A model generated the notes under the pieces. It worked only from the letters and a program-made list of their open reading frames with translations, did not search any database and had not been told where the DNA came from. Positions 1,940-24,135 of a stretch of DNA of 45,788 nucleotides are shown here, one piece after another (position 1 is the stretch's first letter; every line of letters starts with the position of its first letter). Origin of the DNA: an uncultured Candidatus Saccharibacteria bacterium (lineage in GTDB: Bacteria > Patescibacteriota > Dojkabacteria > B142 > OLB20); contig CAYWVD010000002.1 in assembly GCA_964461915.1 (NCBI GenBank), positions 1-45,788 of the forward strand. Direction: 5' to 3'. Position numbers and translations under genes: made by a program.

Positions 1940-2467
1940 TTAATCTTCTGACATTCTTCTGAATTGTCTGCCCATTCCCGCTCCCATTCCTTCACCCATT
2001 CCCATACCCATACCCATACCCATTCCCATTCCGTTCATTCCACCAATCATGATATACCTTAAGGGGATATCCTTTTCATCGGCCCAATCACTTAAATCAT
2101 ATCTTAAATTTTGCATTGCTTCATGCCTTGCATCTGCAGTCAGTTCCTGTGAATTGATTTTTTCGATACTTGCTGCAATTTCAGTCTCTTTTGCTAAGAT
2201 TAAGTTTTTCTGAGCTTCTGTGATGTCACCATCTTCAACTGCTTGGGATAATCTTTCGGTTCGTTCTTGAGTTCTTGTTGACTCAAAAACCTGCTCAACT
2301 TCTGAAGGATTCAAATTAAATTTTGTTGCGATATTTTCAACAATTGTTGGATACTCGCCATTTATTAATGCTGAAACATTATTTAATGCGAAAACTCCGC
2401 CAGCAACTGTTGTTGCAACTAAGAGGACTCCCCCTGTTACTACTAAAGCTAGTTTAGTTTTTCTCAT
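1940..2467 (-). CDS. membrane-anchored or secreted helical protein with a Met/Gly-rich tail
   Basis: N-terminal basic plus hydrophobic segment; helical body; C-terminal GMNGMGMGMGMGMGMGEGMGAGMG. Confidence 0.75.
   Translation of the reverse strand: MRKTKLALVVTGGVLLVATTVAGGVFALNNVSALINGEYPTIVENIATKFNLNPSEVEQVFESTRTQERTERLSQAVEDGDITEAQKNLILAKETEIAASIEKINSQELTADARHEAMQNLRYDLSDWADEKDIPLRYIMIGGMNGMGMGMGMGMGMGEGMGAGMGRQFRRMSED
1995..2030. repeat. (CCCATW)6 hexamer array encoding (MG)6
   Basis: Six contiguous cccatt/cccata units seen directly. Confidence 0.9.
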
Positions 2468-2522
2468 AATTTAAATATAAAAAATTAAATTATCTTTAGT
2501 ATATTGACGCTTTATGAAGATA

Positions 2523-3317
2523 TTATGAAGGCTTTAAAACCTTTGCCGTTTTGTATATCTGGAGCCACTTTTCAAATGGCAACTTAGAGGGTGGGATCGA
2601 TAAATCGAGACCGATATCTTTTTTTATCCTTTTTATTTGATTAAACGAAAATTCAGTTTCTAGTGCATTTTTGAGGATATGTTTTTTTCTATCAAAAATC
2701 CTTGTAACAAATTCGATGAACGCATCCTTTTCAAAATCAATTTTATTTTCATCTATTTTTTTAAATCTAACAAGAATAACATCGGCCTTGGGGATTGGCT
2801 GAAAGTCGAATTTTGAGAATTGATGGGTAATTTCCCCAATAAATTGACACTTTAACTTCATACTTAAAATACTTTCCTGGGAATATGGCAACCCTAAAAA
2901 TCTATAGCCCGCACCTTTTTCTAAAAATATATACGAATCAATCGGAGGATTGTCGGATAATAAGAGTTTGTTGATGATATCTGCACTAATACTGAAGGGG
3001 ATATTTGAGAACACCTTGTATTTATGTACATTGACAACTTCATTTAAAAAATCTCCCTCAATAACTTCAATATTTGTTATGCAAGTTTCTGAGATTTTTG
3101 CCTTAAGTTCCTTTACAAGTTTTTTATCTAATTCATAAGCAATAACTTTTTGGCATTTTTTTGATAACTCAAAAGACAAGACCCCCTTACCGGCGCCTAT
3201 ATCCAAAACAACATCTTGAGAATTAATTGAAGTTTTTTCCCTAATAATCGATTCTATTAATTTACTTGATTTTATGAAGTTTTGTGAAATGCTTAAATTG
3301 TTGTGTTTTTCTATCAT
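2523..3317 (-). CDS. Erm-like rRNA adenine N6-methyltransferase (Erm/KsgA family)
   Basis: N-terminal SQNF, motif I DIGAGKG, YELD, motif IV NIPF, FQPIPK; C-terminal PSKL..EKWLQIY helical domain. Confidence 0.8.
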   Translation of the reverse strand: MIEKHNNLSISQNFIKSSKLIESIIREKTSINSQDVVLDIGAGKGVLSFELSKKCQKVIAYELDKKLVKELKAKISETCITNIEVIEGDFLNEVVNVHKYKVFSNIPFSISADIINKLLLSDNPPIDSYIFLEKGAGYRFLGLPYSQESILSMKLKCQFIGEITHQFSKFDFQPIPKADVILVRFKKIDENKIDFEKDAFIEFVTRIFDRKKHILKNALETEFSFNQIKRIKKDIGLDLSIPPSKLPFEKWLQIYKTAKVLKPS

Positions 3318-3324
3318 GCGAAAG

Positions 3325-3330
3325 ATTATA
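3325..3330 (-). promoter_or_regulatory. perfect -10 box 7 nt upstream of the erm-like ATG (leaderless-type promoter)
   Basis: Minus strand reads TATAAT-ctttcgc-ATG. Confidence 0.55.
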
Positions 3331-3347
3331 CAACAACTACTAACAGC

Positions 3348-5934
3348 CTATAAACAAGTTTGGACTCGGGGGTAGTATTTTGAAGCAAAAACAGCAAGAT
3401 CAGAAGCATCGATTACGCCATCATTATTGAAATCCTTCCCACCACAGCCAGTCTTAACAATATTACTATCCGAACACTTCTTTTGATAAAACCTTGCAAA
3501 TTCTTCGAGATCAATATAATTGAGAATCGAATCAGAGTTACTATCCATAAGTCCACAATTAAATTCCAATTCGCTCTCACCTCCAGAACTTTTACCGTCA
3601 GCGCATTCACAATAATTGACCCTTATTTGATTATTTGAACATGTCTTAATACATATTTTTATTCCTTCATAATTATAATTAACGCATTGGTAGCCTTTTT
3701 CGTTCCCTGCACAATCAAGGTCACTCGAGCACCCCTTTTCACCGCATTGGAACACACCTGGATCAGGCTTTTCAGTTCGAGTAATTTTGGGTGATGGTGT
3801 TCTTGTCCCCTTTGGAGTATTCGTAGGTCTTTTTGTTTTCGTCGGTCTAGGTGTTTTACTAGGTCTTGGTGTTTTACTGGGCTTTTCAGTACCCTCACCG
3901 TTCTCTAAATCTATTTCGAAAGGCTCGCCAGCATTACCCATGCCATCATAAGCAATTACTTTAATAGTCTTAAGATTTTTTATCGGAGAAAACGAAATGG
4001 TTTTGAATTTGTTATAGATGGTTTTTCTAAGCTCTCCATTGAGCCATAGCTCAACCCTCTGAAGAGATTCATCATTTTCATATTTTAGATCAAGTTTTAA
4101 ACTTGTTTTGTTTTGTAGGGATTCAGCAGAATTACTTATTTCTACATTCGGTGGAGTACCCTTAGATTTAAAAGTTTCGGCAAGATTATTAAGCGTTTTA
4201 TTTAAAACTAAAACAGATGGATAATTAAAAAAATCATTACTGGAATCATCATGCCTCATTAGGCTATCAATTGAAGTTCGATAATAATCAGCATTTTTAC
4301 ATTCAATAAAATAATCATCTTTGGCCACAAATTTACTCCACGATTGATTAGGATTTTTTTGTGAACAATTTCTATCATTATATTGCATTGTCCCAGTTGT
4401 CCCATAACTATACTCGTCGAGTACTCCAAGCGTATGAGCAAGCTCATGAGGACCTACCAAAAAGACATTTCCACCATTCCCGAATGCAAAAATTTCCCCA
4501 TCAATCCAAGTGCAACCACCTTCTTTGTTATTCTGGTAGAGTATTCCTATCTTGTCATACTTTAAGTTTAAAGCCTTTGCTTTTGCTCTTACAGCCTCTT
4601 CATCACAAGTAACACAACCACTTTGAGTAGTTGTGCAGCCAAAGTTCTGACCTCTTTCCATGAATTGCTTTGTTACTCTGACTTGCGTTGATCTTATTTT
4701 AAATGGTTCCAACTTGTAAATTTCGTTTTCGACTTGTGAGAAGCTTTTTTCAAAAGAGTCCTCGGATGAAAAAGAATCGGAAAATATTAGAATATCTAGG
4801 AATCCATCCCCAACACCATAAGTAAAAATCCCTCCCTCTTGAAAATCATTAATTGTCTTATATTCAGCAATAGTTGTTCTAAATAGTTCAACATCTCCTT
4901 TTTTAAGAATCAGAAATTCCTGATCTTTTATTTGTGGAATGAGTGTAGAAAAATCAAGCTCATTAGGGACTTCGCCTTCTTGTGGGGGGGTGATAATAAC
5001 TCTTCATCGGTGTATCGATAAATTTCTCAAACAATGATATTCCCTTATTATCTAAAATTTCTATTGAAAAGGCTTTATTATCTGGTATAACCGACGATGG
5101 GAAGTATCCGTTTACAGATTTTATTTGTTTGAAGGAGAGTGTATCTTCGTCGATTTTATAAGTAAAATACAATTCAAAATAATCAATCTTATTTTTAAGA
5201 TATGATCCAGCACTTGATTCTACGGGCAATAAACTTTGCCTTTCAATTATTACTCCGATTAAAATGGATAAAATCCCTAACAGGATTACTAAGATAGATG
5301 AGAATATATTTCCCCTTTTTTCAACTATGTTTACATCTGAATTCTTATTATTCAAATAGGCAATTGGCAATAAAAATAAAAAAGCACCAATAGCAAAGTA
5401 TATCAATTCAAAAACAATTGGATCTTCATTAGAAGAATTCTCTAAAGGATCAATAATTCTAATTAACGAATTCCCTCTTGCATTTTGAAAGTCTCTTTCA
5501 TATTTTGGAATAATTATTGGCTTTGAATTATTTCCTAATGAGGTAAACTCAACCTCATTTAACGGATTCACCCCATATGTTTCTAGCCTACCTATTAATA
5601 AAGTATTTGAGATCGAATTTTTGTTGGTATATATAATTACACAAAGAGTATCTGAATCATAATCTCCAAATTCGTCAGTATCTTTACATCCAATTTCAGT
5701 TGGGTAAATCGAAGAAATGCTAGCAACTCGGCTTTGAGGGAATTTAAACTTTAGTAAAAATGAGTCTTCATTATAAACATTGTCTGTCGCTCGAATTTCA
5801 AAATAAATATTGTCTGTATAAATAATTTCTTCTTTTTCATAAGAATTTACTATATTCGTGCCGAAAAGGTAAAACATAAAAAGTCCCAAGATAAAGGACA
5901 TTATTGATAAGGTGATTTTAATGATCTGCTTCAT
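3348..5934 (-). pseudogene. frameshifted M64-like zinc metallopeptidase with Ig-like domain, P/T/K/R linker, Cys-rich module and dockerin-like EF-hand pair (~861 aa if restored); paralog of 5935..8742
   Basis: ORFs 4963..5934 and 3348..4712 join into one frame if the C7 run at 4984-4990 is C6. The restored junction reads HPPQEGEVPNELDF...GFLDILIFSD...LEPFKIRSTQV, matching GYLDIAIIGN...FEPYNFRRSQV in the paralog. HELAHTLGVLDEY and DSNSDSILNYID/DFNNDGVIDASD motifs are present. Confidence 0.85.
4984..4990. repeat. G7/C7 homopolymer at the frameshift site
   Basis: tgt-ggggggg-tg seen directly. Confidence 0.9.
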
Positions 5935-8742
5935 TTAATTGTAACAATCTTTAGATCTTGGCGAATATTTATTTGCGAAATGTCCAAGATCAATATAGTC
6001 GATCTGTCCATCCTTATTAGAATCTTTACCACCACAAGGCCCAAAGTTAACAGAACTATCTTTGCATTTGTCTCCATAGACAATTGCAAAACTAGCTAGA
6101 TCAATATAATTTAATATACCATCATTATTGATGTCCATTGGACCGCAATTCACGACTTTTTTTGATTCTTGGCAAACACAAATATTTATCTGCACCTCGT
6201 TCGGCTTACAAACTTTTTTGCATATTTTCACAGGATTCTCAGGATTCATTGCATTCGTTACACACTTGTAATCAGGACTCCCTAAACAATCTGAATCTTT
6301 GTTACAACCAGTTACGCCACATTTTAATTGTAATTTATTTGTCGAAGTCGGTGATGGAGTAGGAGATTTAATAACCTTTTTCGTAGGTTTTGGTGTTGGT
6401 GTTTTTGTAGGTTTTTTAGTGGGTTTTTCGGTTGGTTCCTCGGGTTCATCGGTTGGTTCCTCGGGTTCATCGGTTGGTTCCTCAGGAGTATCCGTTGGTT
6501 CCTCGGGTTCATCGGTGGGTTCCTCTGGCTCTTCGGTGGGTTCAGGATCATCTGTCGGTTCCTCTGGAGAATCTGTCGGATCATCATCTCCGATTCCATC
6601 AGGATTTAACTTTATTGTTGCTGATTTACCAGTTCGATCTATTGAGTCGTATGCCTTTATTGTAAGTTGAACTTCTTTATTCGGGATAGTGATATTTTGT
6701 AATGCTTTTGAAATATTTTCAAAATCCTCATATTCAGTAAACATAATTTCATTATCGATCCATAATTCTACTCTTTGGAGATGTTCAGCATTCTCGTAAG
6801 CTATTTCCATATCAATCTTTCCATTAACTTTCTCGTGATTTTTAGGACTTAAGATTTTAGCATCTGGAGCTGGATCATCTGTTGTAAATTCACCTGTAAA
6901 AGCGTCAATTTCATCTAAAATAATCTTTAAAGAAACGGCATTGTAATATCTGGAGTCTTCATCAAAGCGCATAACACTATCAAATGATGTTCTCCACAGA
7001 TTTGTTCTTAAGTCACATCCTTGACTATAGCTGTATTTGCCAACAATATCCTTCCATGCGGGATTTTGATTGGAATCATGACAGTTTAAGCCAGTAATCC
7101 TTAGGGGGGCAGAATTTGTCCTATTTGTATATTCATCAAGTAAACCAAGGCCATGCGAAAGTTCATGAACAAAAACGCTATCAGGAGTGCTTCCTACACA
7201 TAAAAAGAAATATTCTGTTCCTACACCAGTTGAGGTTCCACATCTTTTATTTTCATTATGTATTACCGCAATTTTGTCATATTTTATTTTCTTTTGATTC
7301 AAAATATTAGTTACTAGACTATAGTCACACATAATAAATGTAGACGCATCAGCAGTTCTACAGCTTAGACTCTGAGTATTTTCCACAATCGAAAATCTTA
7401 CCTGGGATCTCCTAAAGTTATATGGCTCGAATTCTAATACAGCCTTTTTTATACTCTCAGCTAACGTTTTAAAACTGTTCATACTATTACTGGTATAACC
7501 GTTTCCGATTATCGCAATGTCGAGGTAGCCATCATTTTTACTTGCTTGATCCATTCCATAAATATCTATTATAGTTTCATTATCAACATCTCCGTCAGGA
7601 TAATACTCAGATATATCGAAATCCTGGATTAGAGAATCATTCAAATAAACCGATAAAGCTTTTTCGCTCTTTAGCTGTGGAACATTCACAATTATATCGA
7701 GGACATCATAATCAGAAGGGATTGAATTTGCCCAATTAGGATCTGTTGGTAAATTAGTTTCGGGATCAATTATAGGGTTAATCAAAATCTCTGGAATGGT
7801 CACACCCAATTCGTAAAGAGAATTCCCAGTAAAATCCTCCACCTTAATTTTAAGGGGTGAATCAGGATTGCTTTGTATTTGTGGGATAAATCCAAAGCCA
7901 GGAGAAACTTCACTTGAAACAATCGAATTTGTCCTCCAATTATATTTTATTAAAACTTGTAAATATTTAACCGGTTTATTTAATTGAGATAATGCATCAA
8001 TTACAATGGGTGCTTGGCTCTTTTGCCCTAGATATAATCCCACAATAATTGAAATTATTCCGATAAAAGCTATTAGAACGACCTCCAACAGTAATTTCCC
8101 TTTGGATTTTGTGTTTTCTTTCAATGCCTTTTGTGAAGAGATCTTTTGCCTTATAAATAATGAAGACAAAACAAATATAACCCCTATGATAAAAAGAACG
8201 ATATTAAGGTATCCTATACGATCGATTGGGGCATCTTCTTTAAATCGTGGAATTGAATTGACCACACCTTTAAACTCATTCATATTCACAACAAACTGAT
8301 CTTTTGAAAATTTCGGCTCTATCAGTAAGTTCTCATCATACACACCTTGATTATCTGTAAAAGTAGATTCTTTAACAGAATTTACAAATGGATTCATCTC
8401 GTTTGATTGAATGGTCCCCCAAATCAATGGGATATTATCAGTGGTATTGGAATCAAGTGGACTAACCTTAAGACAAATTTCCGACTTTGATGAATATGTA
8501 CATGTATCTTTGATTTCGCCACTTGAAAACAATTCTGTGACAATGCTATTAGGGAATGATATTTTGAAATCATGCGAAATTGCCGAAGAAGAATCAGTTC
8601 CACTGAAAACTTCGAAATATTGAATAATTGCAAATCCTGGGCTATTTAGTCCATTGATTATCTTGACGCCCGCACCAATTATTAAAAGAGCCCCAATCAA
8701 TAATGGGGCTAGAAAATATAGGCTTCTCTTTATACTTTCCAT
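5935..8742 (-). CDS. three-TM surface M64-like (IgA peptidase-like) zinc metallopeptidase with Ig-like domain, acidic P/T/E linker, Cys-rich module and dockerin-like repeats
   Basis: HELSHGLGLLDEY (HExxH..L.DEY), YLDIAIIGNGY, SVMR, DINNDGILNYID and DSNKDGQIDYID. ATG at 8742 follows the TTG chosen by the ORF track. Confidence 0.8.
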   Translation of the reverse strand: MESIKRSLYFLAPLLIGALLIIGAGVKIINGLNSPGFAIIQYFEVFSGTDSSSAISHDFKISFPNSIVTELFSSGEIKDTCTYSSKSEICLKVSPLDSNTTDNIPLIWGTIQSNEMNPFVNSVKESTFTDNQGVYDENLLIEPKFSKDQFVVNMNEFKGVVNSIPRFKEDAPIDRIGYLNIVLFIIGVIFVLSSLFIRQKISSQKALKENTKSKGKLLLEVVLIAFIGIISIIVGLYLGQKSQAPIVIDALSQLNKPVKYLQVLIKYNWRTNSIVSSEVSPGFGFIPQIQSNPDSPLKIKVEDFTGNSLYELGVTIPEILINPIIDPETNLPTDPNWANSIPSDYDVLDIIVNVPQLKSEKALSVYLNDSLIQDFDISEYYPDGDVDNETIIDIYGMDQASKNDGYLDIAIIGNGYTSNSMNSFKTLAESIKKAVLEFEPYNFRRSQVRFSIVENTQSLSCRTADASTFIMCDYSLVTNILNQKKIKYDKIAVIHNENKRCGTSTGVGTEYFFLCVGSTPDSVFVHELSHGLGLLDEYTNRTNSAPLRITGLNCHDSNQNPAWKDIVGKYSYSQGCDLRTNLWRTSFDSVMRFDEDSRYYNAVSLKIILDEIDAFTGEFTTDDPAPDAKILSPKNHEKVNGKIDMEIAYENAEHLQRVELWIDNEIMFTEYEDFENISKALQNITIPNKEVQLTIKAYDSIDRTGKSATIKLNPDGIGDDDPTDSPEEPTDDPEPTEEPEEPTDEPEEPTDTPEEPTDEPEEPTDEPEEPTEKPTKKPTKTPTPKPTKKVIKSPTPSPTSTNKLQLKCGVTGCNKDSDCLGSPDYKCVTNAMNPENPVKICKKVCKPNEVQINICVCQESKKVVNCGPMDINNDGILNYIDLASFAIVYGDKCKDSSVNFGPCGGKDSNKDGQIDYIDLGHFANKYSPRSKDCYN
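6429..6585. repeat. imperfect 21-bp tandem array encoding PTDEPEE repeats
   Basis: Unit CGGTTGGTTCCTCGGGTTCAT, about 7-8 degenerate copies, in frame inside 5935..8742. Confidence 0.85.
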
Positions 8743-8792
8743 CAATTAATTTGAGGAATATATAAATATTTTCTGATATTTGAAAAGACAAG

Positions 8793-11885: not shown

Positions 11886-14328
11886 TTACGGCTCAGGATT
11901 CCTAAGCCCATAGATCCTATCAAGTGTAGTAAATATCACTGGCCCCTTCTCAGCCTCAGCTGAGTAATTGATTACATAATCCATAACCTTATTCATTGTG
12001 GCATTATCATAAGTCGTAAACCAATGTGGATGGCTCATAAAATTGACGACATTCATTTTCGAAAGTGGCATCATTTTATCAGAATATATTTCATTAAATT
12101 TGCCAATCATTACCTCTGGAGGATTATTAGTTGTATCCCGCCCGTTATTCGGCACTTCGATTATTCCAAAATTGTCATTATCACTGGCCTTGTTTTGATT
12201 CGAATTCGAAATCATATATGGAGGCTGCGAAGGGGCCAAGTCCCAAAAGCCGACTGCATTCCCCCAATTATATTTATCTCTACCGGATGTATCAATTTTA
12301 AAACCATACTTTGGAAGGACTTTCAAATTCTTTAAATCAATAAACCAACCGCCCGCTCGATAAGTCACTGGCTTTGGGAAGTTATACTCTTCAAAGAAGT
12401 TCAATGAACAATCAAGTAATTCACCAAATTCCTCTGGTGAATATGCGCTGGTTAAAACATCATGGCAATTATATCTGCTATCCCATTTGGGCTCAGTTTT
12501 GTAATCTAGTCCGCATGCTTTGAAAAGGTCACAATGCATATGCAGATGCATTCCGATCTCATCGCCTAAGGCATACCTATCAAAGACAAATTTTTTAAGG
12601 GCATCTTTTCTAATTTCACTCACATCGTTTGCTTCAAAAACTCTTGGCGTAACAAGTTGAACCATCGGAATTTTATATTTCGATGAAATCTTCGACATGG
12701 CGCTCATATTCGAATCACTAATGTCATAGCCCTCCCAATCAATAGTCCAGACAACATATAGAGGATATGACACCATAAATTCAATCGGTTCACTCTTTTT
12801 ATTAGCCCCGGTTATAAACACCTCAACGCGATGTGTCCCGATTGCGTAATCTGAAGGCTCAATTTTATAGTTATAATTTTCAGAAGCGTTGCGTTCGATC
12901 CTGTCGGCCAATTTACCATCCACAAAGACATCTATTCCACGATAGTCATAGCCTTTGTTGTTTACAGTTATATCCACAATTCCACTTTTATACTGGTCAA
13001 ATGACGGATCGTCGCTTTCGATCTTAAAGATAGTCTTTCGACTAATAAATGAATCTATTGTGAAGTTTGCATCAACTCTTTCGATATAGCTTTTATCAAC
13101 AACATTAAATGAAAGTACACTTGCAAAATCTTGATTGTAATTAGTTATCAGCCTTATCATGAAGATTCCAGCCAACCAAACTGCAGCTAAGATATAGAAA
13201 GCTCTAAAATAAACAGAATCAAAAGTCCTTAAGGAAAATCTTTCCCTAAGCGGATTCAAAACTTTATGAGAATTCGTGATATAGACAAGTATAGTTCCCA
13301 ATAAAACTATTATTATGTAGTACCCAAACATCGCTAGTGGCTCACCCAGCTTAATTCCTAATCCATATTGACCAATGAATAATAGGACCAGATGAACAAT
13401 ATAGTAATCAAATAGATTTTGCCCAATAAACGAAACTACTTTTGATTCACCATTCCCGACTAACTTTTCGATTATAAACAAAAGTATGGAGGTATAACTT
13501 AACCCAATTAATATAAACAATATGCTTGGAGGCCATCTAACGATATCCAATCCTATAGATGGATAAACGTTCCCGGCTACAAGGATTATTAGGGTAACAA
13601 ATCCAATAAAAGCCATGAGTCCATTTTTAAGCCTTAACTCTTTTGCATAATCTTTAAAGGCAATCAATTTCCCCCAATAAGCTCCGAGCAAGAAAACTAT
13701 TGAATATTGAAATATTGGAAATCTATACCAATCTGAATGCCCTACAAATATTGATTTTATGAACAAGAATTCATTTGGAACATCAACCTTGTATAAGAAC
13801 ATTCCTAAGGCATAAAGCCCGATTCCCATTACAAGCGTCAAAAAAAGGCTATTAGTAATATTTTTTAATAATGGCCTCAGATAATAGATTAATAGGTAGA
13901 AGAAAATAAAAGGAAGTAGAAACTCTACATAATTGGGTACATCAACAAATAGGATCAATCTAATTATCCTACTTAAAATATCTACATTGGAATCCAAAAG
14001 CTCTGGCAGGTATCCTATTAGGACAATTAAATAATACGATAGTAAAAGTTTAAAGGCCTTGTGTGGAATTTTTTCTTTCTTTTCATCAAATTCTTCTTTT
14101 GAAATGTCCGGTCTCAAATATGACAAAAACATTCCGATACCAGACAAAAATAACAAAACAGTGAAAGTTGTCAGATTAATAAAATTAATTATTGGAGCCA
14201 AATAAGGATCGGCTCCAAGGCCCACAAAGTAAGCCGTATGGCCAAGAATCATCAACAAGCAAGTGATACTTTTTAAGATGTCTATGGTACTAATTCTCTC
14301 GTGTTTTTTTATGTCAGTTTTTTAACAT
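11886..14328 (-). CDS. fusion of a multi-TM acyltransferase-3/OpgC-like domain, an Ig-like domain and a polysaccharide-deacetylase-like (NodB-type) domain; 5' end out of frame at an A6 run
   Basis: RISTIDILK..LLMILGH lies in frame upstream of the TTG called at 14258. C-terminal TIDWEG, EIGMHLH, YRAGGW and MSHPH motifs. ATG at 14328 is 1 nt out of frame. Confidence 0.7.
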
Positions 14329-18701: not shown

Positions 18702-18711
18702 ATATATATAT
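18702..18711. repeat. (AT)5 microsatellite in the signal-peptide coding region
   Basis: aca-atatatatat-tgta seen directly. Confidence 0.85.
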
Positions 18712-21700: not shown

Positions 21701-22741
21701 ATTTTTAATAATTACTCAACTAGTAGCTTTAGTCAATTTGATAGCGTTGGGGCAACCATATCAACTGCTCTTACTAATCCAATAATAATCACACAAGATA
21801 CTTTTGCAGTTGACGATCCTACCGGTATAACTCAAGGAACTTATTTGATTATTAATAGACCCGTTGGAGCTCCTTTTGCTACTACTTTAACAGCTCCAAT
21901 GAATGCGACCCAATTTTCAGCCGATGTTATAGATGCAAGTGGCCTTTATGAATACTCTAGAATCACAATAGACCCGGGCGATCCTTCAAAAGAAGAAGTT
22001 GTTCAGATTAGCACTATCGCAGGTAATGTATTAAGTCTTTCCTCAAGAGAAGGGACAATTACTCATGATGCCGGCGCAGTAGTAGTTCTGGATCAATATT
22101 CTATAAGTGAATTAGTTTATGTAGAAGCAGTTAACGGTAATAATATAACAGTACGAAGAGCTGAAGGTTACACTACCGAGAGGGACTTCCCGGCGGGAAC
22201 AACTGTAAATGATTTTCAATTCCCCTTGCCAACAGTAAAGGGTTTTGTTGATACAATTAGTCCTGGTAATGTCCTTTTTGAAAATAATTATTGGGACGCT
22301 CAGCTAAGTGGAGTATCAGATTCTGCTGAAGGAATAGGCCTAACTACTGCACAAATGAAAGATCCTGACAGCTTTATCGGATTTAACTTTTCTACATACT
22401 GGTCAACAAACCCACTTGTAAATGATGAATATCCATTCTTATCTTTTGATGATCCTACAATTGTTTCATTTGATACTACCGAAGGGCTTCTTCAGCCATC
22501 ATTCCATAGACATACTCATGTTTACAATATCGATGTAGATACATCTGTGGATACAATTTCATTTAAGGCCGATGCCACCGAAGCTCTAATTCGACAAATC
22601 GATATTGATGGATCCCCAATTGCAGACAATGTTTACACAGGGGCCCTAACTTTAGTGGACTGAGCTAATCAATTTATTTATAACCTCACATCAAGAGATT
22701 TCAGATCAGTCAGCTATATTATCAATGTGAATAAAGTGGGT

Positions 22742-22929
22742 ACGCCTGCAACACCTACACCAACGCCAACCGCTACGCCAACAAGCACTCCAACTTCAAC
22801 ACCGATAATAACCGCGTCTCCAACTAGCACTCCTACACCTACGCCCACAAATATTCCGGAGGTTAGTTTGACTCCTGCAATCTCAACAGTGACGCCGACT
22901 TTATCACCTAGTGCGACGATAACACCGAC
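22742..22929 (+). repeat. low-complexity Pro/Thr linker coding region
   Basis: TPATPTPTPTATPTSTPTSTP...; codon-degenerate repeats; approximate bounds. Confidence 0.75.
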
Positions 22930-24135
22930 CGAAATTATTGATACAAATAGATGCCTTATTGCAAATTCAATTATTAAAAAAACCTATACTGGTTCAGGCA
23001 TTAATCTAAACTTTAATATCGATAATGCCAATTTATGCATAATTAAATATGGCAGAGCTGGAAGTAGCTATATTGGGCAGGTTCCTGCAATTAAAAACAA
23101 TAATAATTTTTCAGCCTCCATAAATTTTCAAGAGTTTTCAGCAGATGAAGATATTGCATATAGGATAGAATGCTCTACCGGTGATACTCAATGTACTCTA
23201 TCAGACACCATTTACAGGAACATAAATCCACCAACAGTTCCATTTTTATCGTTCAACTTTAATCTTGGAGTATATGAGTTTATTACATTAACCGGCCTAG
23301 CGCTCGGTATAATCCCAGTATCCATTGCCTTCCCTAAATTCTGGCTTTATGCATTTCTTTGGATTTTCCCTAAAAAGAAAAAGAGTCCATGGGGAATAGT
23401 TTATGACTATCAGAGCATGTCCCCTATTCCATTTGCTGCAGTTAGGATACTTGATTTAAGTGGAAATGTTTTAAAACAAACAGTATCTGATCTTCAAGGG
23501 AGGTTTAGCTTTATCATGGATCCAGGCCAATATCAACTAATGGTCGAGCATAAAGACTACAACAAAGTAAATAAGACTATTTTTATTGCTAATCAAGATG
23601 CTCAAATCAATCAAGATGTATTAATGATAAAAGTTGCAAATACAAATGCATTCTGGCCAAAATTAAAGAAAAATTTAGGTGTTTTTGCATCAAAAACTTA
23701 TTTGTTTATTGGATTCTTTGGCCTAATATTTGCTCTGCTTGCTATGATTACTAATTTTGAATTGGTAAACATAATAATATTTGGATTATATATAGTCCAA
23801 TTAATTATTTACCTTTCGATTCATCCAGATAGAAATATCGGATTTGTGAATGATCTTGATAGTAAAGAACGAATAAAGGGAGCTTTCGTTAGAGTCCAAG
23901 ATGTTGTTCAGGGTAGACAAATCGATATCCAAATGACTGACGAAAAAGGCCGATTCGGCTTTAACTTAGATAAAGGTGAATATCTTTTACTTACTGATGC
24001 CGAAGGCTATGAAGTTGCTGGAAGCACACTACCAGAAACCATCTTAAATTCGGGCGTAAAAGCATTTAAATACGATTCAGTACAGAAGAATGTAAACTTC
24101 GAGATGAAAAAGATCAGAACCTAAGAGATGGAGTT

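Follow-up and report, generated by a model that had tools for sequence, protein, structure and literature searches.

A seven-cytosine run splits one of two tandem M64-like peptidase genes in a 1.0-Mb genome, probably through recent, unprogrammed slippage

Peptidases of the M64 family, among them the IgA peptidase of Thomasclavelia ramosa and the proteins BF3526 (PDB 4DF9) and BACOVA_00663 (PDB 3P1V), have the pattern HExxHxxGxxDEY in common with the tandem gene pair considered here. The predicted core fold has its best matches among M64 structures, and close relatives lie above the Pfam threshold for M64, while the sequence identity to the solved M64 structures is only 10-20%. What sets the present peptidase apart from these comparators is its N-terminal anchor of three transmembrane (TM) segments, an additional extracellular domain that goes with this anchor, a Big_7-like Ig domain, a linker of Pro and Thr, and a C-terminal anchor that is either dockerin-like or a TM segment; nothing ties it to immunoglobulins.

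One member of the pair is split at a run of seven cytosines. Frameshifted pseudogenes from slippage at short homopolymers are annotated in many bacterial genomes, and the locus resembles them in that a single-base change in a mononucleotide run splits an otherwise intact open reading frame (ORF), with an intact paralog adjoining. It differs from the usual case in its setting, the 1.0-Mb genome of an uncultured bacterium with apparently few pseudogenes, and in that fixation was checked at the level of assemblies. With programmed +1 frameshifting of the prfB type it shares the direction of the shift needed and a P-site tRNA that could re-pair on a C-rich run, but, unlike prfB, the site lacks a stop or slow codon next to it, a Shine-Dalgarno-like element upstream of it and conservation. 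It is, finally, similar to the poly-G/C contingency loci of Campylobacter jejuni, Helicobacter and Neisseria, where a G/C homopolymer within the coding region of a surface protein leads to a truncated OFF product and a one-unit change restores the frame. It is unlike them in that the tract has minimum length and is unconserved, in that mismatch repair is present, in that the tract is placed mid-gene and not near the 5' end, and in that no length variation is observed among assemblies. A poly-G/C tract of 7 is the lowest length counted by PhasomeIt, and tracts at this cut-off may mutate below 1e-5, which may make them too stable to serve as real switches; the variability documented in C. jejuni NCTC 11168 concerns tracts of at least 8 (PMC6321876).

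The window, i.e., the whole stretch of 45,788 nucleotides of DNA that was analysed, comes from a metagenome-type assembly in 5 contigs of a genome (G000) of 1.0 Mb and 34% G+C with small-genome relatives. The gene pair lies on its minus strand and consists of copy 1, the intact paralog of 936 aa (5935..8745), and copy 2, the split gene, which is divided into an N piece and a C piece; the TAA of copy 1 abuts the ATG of the N piece. The lesion is the C7 homopolymer run at 4984..4990 on the minus strand (G7 on the plus strand), one base above the in-frame length. At the run, the minus strand reads TAT TAT CAC CCC CCC ACA AGA AGG CGA AGT CCC TAA, where the seven Cs extend from window position 4990 to 4984. 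The N piece is an ORF of 323 aa (4963..5934, minus strand), which starts with the ATG at 5934, stops at the TAA at 4965-4963 and ends in HPPTRRRSP*, the tail TRRRSP* being frameshifted. The C piece is a stop-to-stop open frame of 551 codons (3348..5003, minus strand), which begins RVIITPPQEGEVPNELDF and has its first ATG, GTG or TTG codon, a TTG at 4712, 97 codons in. With one C fewer, the two pieces form one continuous protein of 861 aa with the junction SYYHPPQEGEVPNELDF, reading SYYHPPQEGEV, and with the run at codon 315 of 861; the tryptic peptide across the junction of this full-length form is SYYHPPQEGEVPNELDFSTLIPQIK. The 544 codons downstream of the run contain zero stops, have an intact catalytic motif and show no further decay, and GC3 is 0.263 in the N piece, 0.261 in the C piece and 0.269 in the genome. 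The original prediction had described both frames, one with C7 that ends in HPPTRRRSP* (4963) and one with C6 that continues into an ORF at 3348..4712; the first is borne out by direct reading of the letters and by the ORF, the second by the 861-aa fusion that appears on removal of one C.

The N piece has three hydrophobic segments, taken as TM segments, at about residues 3-30, 171-197 and 207-239, and retains the complete first extracellular domain, which is placed between TM1 and TM2. In the C piece, the M64-like peptidase core is followed by the Ig-like domain, then by a Pro/Thr/Lys linker and a Cys-rich segment, and last by a dockerin-like end. The present state of the gene encodes, as also predicted originally, a membrane stub of 323 aa that lacks both the protease and the dockerin module. 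The zinc-binding motif HELAHTLGVLDEY is intact at residues 186-198 of the C piece (4410..4448, minus strand), where H186, E187, H190, G193, D196, E197 and Y198 are invariant in the family alignment. Together with its counterpart in the paralog, HELSHGLGLLDEY, it has HExxH followed by GxxDEY, and both copies conform to HExxHxLGxLDEY.

The gathering cut-off of 26 bits for Pfam M64 (PF09471) is missed by the C piece (14.6 bits) and by copy 1 (25.3 bits), but it is passed by relatives, i.e., by the protein from the genome of a sister species (G001, a metagenome-assembled genome, MAG; 57.3 bits) and by the proteins P0006 (53.0), P0010 (57.7) and P0025 (64.9 bits). The phmmer matches to relatives have E values from 1e-51 to 1e-24. 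Since both copies are sub-threshold while their relatives are above, their full membership in M64 is by transitive homology only, and M64-like is a fair name. The model of the C piece has low confidence, with a mean pLDDT of 49.9 and values of about 60-87 for the core residues 68-190. Foldseek places M64 structures at all of ranks 1-16 (9qdh, 9i4z, 9qdi, 4df9 and 3p1v) with E values from 1e-6 to 2e-4 and probability 1.0, but with TM-scores of 0.22-0.37; a sequence search of the PDB gave no significant match. Motif, relatives and fold support the label that had been given to the gene at the outset.

The dockerin-like C-terminal module, at residues 486-538 of the C piece (3390..3548, minus strand), gives weak matches to Pfam Dockerin_1 (E 0.029) and to the PDB dockerin 2y3n_B (E 0.12), and one relative, P0036, passes the Dockerin_1 cut-off. 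A Cys-rich and dockerin-like C-terminal module is also found on large secreted proteins encoded elsewhere in G000, by about 7 further ORFs such as C1:770014-773771, and on dozens of them in related genomes. The recurrence of this module suggests a shared surface-attachment system.

Copy 1 has the same order of parts as copy 2, from the three TM segments over the peptidase and the Ig domain to the linker and the dockerin-like end, and the hydrophobic segments are found in the same places in both. Residues 1-318 of copy 1 align with the N piece (22% identity, E 0.004) and residues 349-934 with the C piece (32% identity, E 7e-78), so that the collinearity with the paralog, claimed from the beginning, holds over both pieces. 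In G001 there is a single intact homolog of 1070 aa to which both pieces align, the N piece to residues 60-317. The RrnaAD/Erm-like methyltransferase gene downstream of copy 2 (2523..3317, minus strand) can be used as a synteny anchor, because the single intact peptidase gene of G001 lies directly upstream of the homolog of this gene. In the family alignment, the N piece occupies columns 1-342 and the C piece begins at column 343, and the junction is bridged by the motif PPxLEGE, on whose conserved Pro-Pro the C7 run sits. A HMMER search yielded 397 representative clusters, and nearly all best matches are single chains with a peptidase domain that begins at residue 150-380; among 40 relatives there is no stand-alone N module. 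When genome contigs were scanned, only the sister-species MAG and one distant archaeal match were found. The fused architecture is, by comparison of sequences, the ancestral one, since copy 1, the protein of G001 and the top relatives from the databases all are single chains with PPxLEGE over the junction. The run itself is not shared: G001 codes the same Pro-Pro as CCA CCT, without a run, and copy 1 has neither the Pro-Pro nor the run at the junction. In the tree, copy 1 and copy 2 are sisters (support 95/94) whose branches measure 1.13 and 1.49 substitutions per site, and branches of this length mean that the duplication is old and that both copies were long retained.

The seventh C is present in DNA from several sequencing runs. 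It is shared by the Logan contigs L015, L016 and L020, which are per-run SRA assemblies made with an assembler different from that of the window. L015 and L016 (from SRR12489243 and SRR12489246) are 100% identical to window 3458-6457 (3000 nt), C7 included, and a product specific for the frameshift is also called in the Logan assembly of SRR12489245. The accessions SRR12489243, 45 and 46 are consecutive and probably belong to one study, which means that they represent independent libraries and not independent populations, possibly from the same samples as those behind the G000 assembly; a literature search found no paper naming these runs. A scan of metagenomes added one 1.9-kb JGI contig (L014, Ga0116172_10081604), which ends short of the junction. 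The fused C6 protein is absent among 5.8 billion proteins when these are searched with the 861-aa sequence, and a 227-aa query that spans the junction finds, in the same collection, the stub P0155 only and no fusion. Exact look-ups of the 323-aa and 454-aa ORFs returned no record. The tract length is in all cases read from assemblies, which hide minor variants such as a minority of C6 cells or low-level recoding.

We regard it as probable that the extra C is a real, recent and unprogrammed slippage frameshift that inactivates a redundant copy 2. To see how this may have come about, consider the old tandem pair as two genes for membrane-anchored, extracellular zinc peptidases of the predicted M64-like type, where copy 2 carries by chance a C6 tract (CAC CCC CCA, His-Pro-Pro). 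Replication slippage would then add one C to this tract, and translation of copy 2 would stop six codons past the run. The product would be a three-TM stub of 323 aa, which keeps the first extracellular domain but has lost the peptidase together with the Ig domain and the dockerin-like end. As for the 544 codons after the run, they are most likely untranslated, since this part of the gene is startless for 97 codons and has no export signal. Copy 1, in contrast, is intact and probably co-transcribed with copy 2, so that the loss of copy 2 should be tolerable; function would have been lost from a gene whose inactivation is neutral or whose role is redundant. A scan for promoters and terminators gave AT-rich noise only.

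That the lesion is young follows from the downstream frame, which is without a stop and has genome-typical GC3, and the lack of any other lesion in copy 2 points to a recent event, as in frameshifted slippage pseudogenes. The frame is disrupted in comparison with intact homologs and the disruption is present in the DNA itself, which is what characterizes a pseudogene. An undamaged downstream frame is, however, also expected of a gene that is maintained and sometimes expressed, and a 7-nt G/C tract reaches the loosest published cut-off for phase variation. For now, the case is a point of annotation and a small data point, namely that surface peptidase genes are expendable in this lineage, and otherwise of little weight.

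The original prediction also proposed that the run could act as an ON/OFF switch, i.e., that copy 2 is a contingency locus where selected and reversible slipped-strand mispairing turns one of two surface peptidase paralogs on (C6) and off (C7). We find this rather unlikely. A switch would accord with the surface-exposed product, which belongs to the class usually subject to phase variation, with the change of one unit that suffices to restore the frame, with the 544 intact downstream codons, their catalytic motif and normal GC3, and with a tract length equal to the poly-G/C cut-off of PhasomeIt, although at just this length the tract may mutate below 1e-5 (PMC6321876). At the site itself, C7 is common to all assemblies that cover it, no length variant appears in the public assemblies, and no fused product is on record. 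The tract is, moreover, mid-gene, and it is absent from the paralog and from G001, i.e., conserved in neither. MutS and MutL are both encoded, intact, in G000.

Nor are G/C tracts enriched in the genome. Extrapolation of the decay from runs of 4 over 5 to 6 (ratio 0.19) leads to an expectation of about 17 G/C runs of at least 7 in 1.0 Mb, and 10 are seen, so that the over-representation that marks contingency tracts is lacking in G000; for comparison, 1944 such tracts are counted in 77 Campylobacter genomes (PMC6321876). The other nine runs, one of which lies in a RuvB-like gene, leave their frames undisturbed. The longest G/C runs of the genome are G8 at C3:13588-13595 and at C3:13810-13817, C9 at C1:403616-403624, four codons before a stop, and C8 at C4:20433-20440. 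The two G8 runs are 222 nt apart on a 34.7-kb contig, one just before and one within a frame of 164 codons.

Two further repeats in the window were considered as linked contingency loci and rejected, both being invariant, fixed features. The (AT)5 repeat at 18702-18711, before the gene for a 1312-aa NHL-repeat protein, is identical in 9 loci from several studies. The A6 run at 14318-14323, which precedes the gene for an acyltransferase, is unchanged across 8 loci; these come from several studies and include a strain that in this region is only 82-87% identical. The stability of these apparent frame lesions implies that the acyltransferase and NHL-repeat genes probably start at other codons, and the invariance of both sites speaks against switching in this region. 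Nothing positive supports a dedicated switch at the C7 run; what fits one is confined to the class of the gene and the undamaged frame downstream. If there were a switch, an episymbiont of the candidate phyla radiation (CPR) type would toggle one M64-like surface peptidase between the full-length enzyme and a three-TM stub. To our knowledge, repeat-mediated phase variation would thereby be shown for the first time in the CPR, a full-text literature search for phase variation in Patescibacteria having found no paper, and mixed tract lengths would mean that phase variation driven by repeats occurs also in ultra-small, uncultured bacteria that retain mismatch repair.

A full-length protein could in principle also be made from the C7 gene by recoding, either through +1 slippage of tRNA-Pro on CCC-CCC-A or through slippage of the RNA polymerase. 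CCC-C is a known +1-prone context, against which m1G37, made by TrmD, and EF-P act as guards. It is present at the run, a P-site shift from CCC to CCC or CCA would preserve pairing and lead to exactly HPPQEGEV, and the downstream frame is intact. G000 encodes, however, both TrmD and EF-P. The stop in the 0 frame is six codons on and not adjacent to the slippery codons, and no Shine-Dalgarno-like stimulator is visible. No codon among those counted is commoner than the A-site codon ACA, with 21 per 1000, from which follows that ACA is neither a slow codon nor a stop codon, and the RNA around the run folds into no structure (z = +0.36). Since G001 and the paralog are in frame at this site without a run, there is no conserved recoding site. 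Programmed +1 frameshifting is recognized by an A-site codon that is slow or a stop, by a stimulator and by conservation among orthologs. All of these are missing here, and a programmed event is unlikely, although there may be a trace of read-through. For polymerase slippage, C/G runs of 7 are poor sites in comparison with A/T runs of at least 9. Altogether, recoding of either kind is very unlikely.

Still less probable is a functional split, where the three-TM stub, an internally initiated C-terminal product or both act as proteins in their own right. The two pieces have Logan gene calls, of 312 aa and 437 aa, both of which were found, and the stub contains a complete first extracellular domain. 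An internal start, either at the TTG at 4712 or at an ATG near 4661, would remove about 100 residues, however, and with them the strand and helix that open the peptidase core as modelled over residues 68-190. The product would be without a signal peptide or TM segment for its export, and neither start is preceded by a Shine-Dalgarno-like sequence. Such a split is also at odds with the missing stand-alone N module and with the single chains of the family described above, in which nearly all database relatives begin their peptidase domain at residue 150-380. Both ORFs belong to one disrupted gene and should not be given names of separate proteins.

Homopolymers are classic sites of indel errors, the assembly is of the metagenome type in 5 contigs and the gene is free of other defects, but an artefact of sequencing or assembly that conceals a true C6 and an intact gene is just as improbable as the split, because C7 recurs in three separate run-level assemblies from another assembler, a C6 version is on record nowhere, and 73 six-base and 9 other G/C runs of at least 7, together with thousands of A/T runs, give no second convincing split gene. 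The scans of the 1.0-Mb genome behind this last statement returned 34 homopolymer sites at which the gain or loss of one base would join two frames, each of 100 aa or more, as well as 59 looser candidates. Among these 34 and 59 candidates the C7 site is alone in having a startless junction with long coding frames on both sides, which makes it the sole convincing mid-gene frameshift found. From a single convincing split gene in the whole genome follows that the assembly is not error-prone at homopolymers, and a systematic homopolymer error is ruled out by the same scans. An A8 run at C1:239374, taken up as a second candidate lesion, was rejected as the normal boundary between the L19 gene and the RNase HII gene.

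The recent loss of copy 2, which we prefer to these alternatives, can be seen beside the variation of the locus among strains. A related strain (Logan ERR3438382, on a 72-kb contig) has 97.6% identity to the window over 24228-17504 and 82-87% over 15970-8548, but in this strain the peptidase pair is gone and only a remnant of 72 codons from copy 1 is left. After the remnant follow genes for a SMODS/AGS_C protein (343 aa), a SLATT_4 protein (187 aa), a NUDIX protein and a tyrosine integrase (287 aa), and then unrelated genes. This replacement island, at L041:4828-9267 (Logan ERR3438382_1376), corresponds to window positions below 8793 and looks like a CBASS-like defence island at the spot of the peptidases. 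The absence of the pair from a related strain means that the peptidase genes are dispensable and that the spot is strain-variable.

The JGI contig L014 shows a different kind of variation. At the C-terminal end of copy 2 it has 99% amino-acid identity with the window, with 6 of 653 nt different, and these 3 synonymous and 3 non-synonymous changes are too few for selection to be read from them. In the RrnaAD/Erm-like gene, 75 of 795 nt differ, corresponding to 45 synonymous and 19 non-synonymous codons. From the mosaic divergence between L014 and window 2124-4000 follows a recombination boundary near position 3330.

Elsewhere in the window, at 22661-24124, a frame of 1321 codons is followed in phase by one of 486 codons, with only a single TGA between the two. 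Their counterparts in the related strain are called separately, with a gap of 72 nt, and the two frames are probably two adjacent genes.
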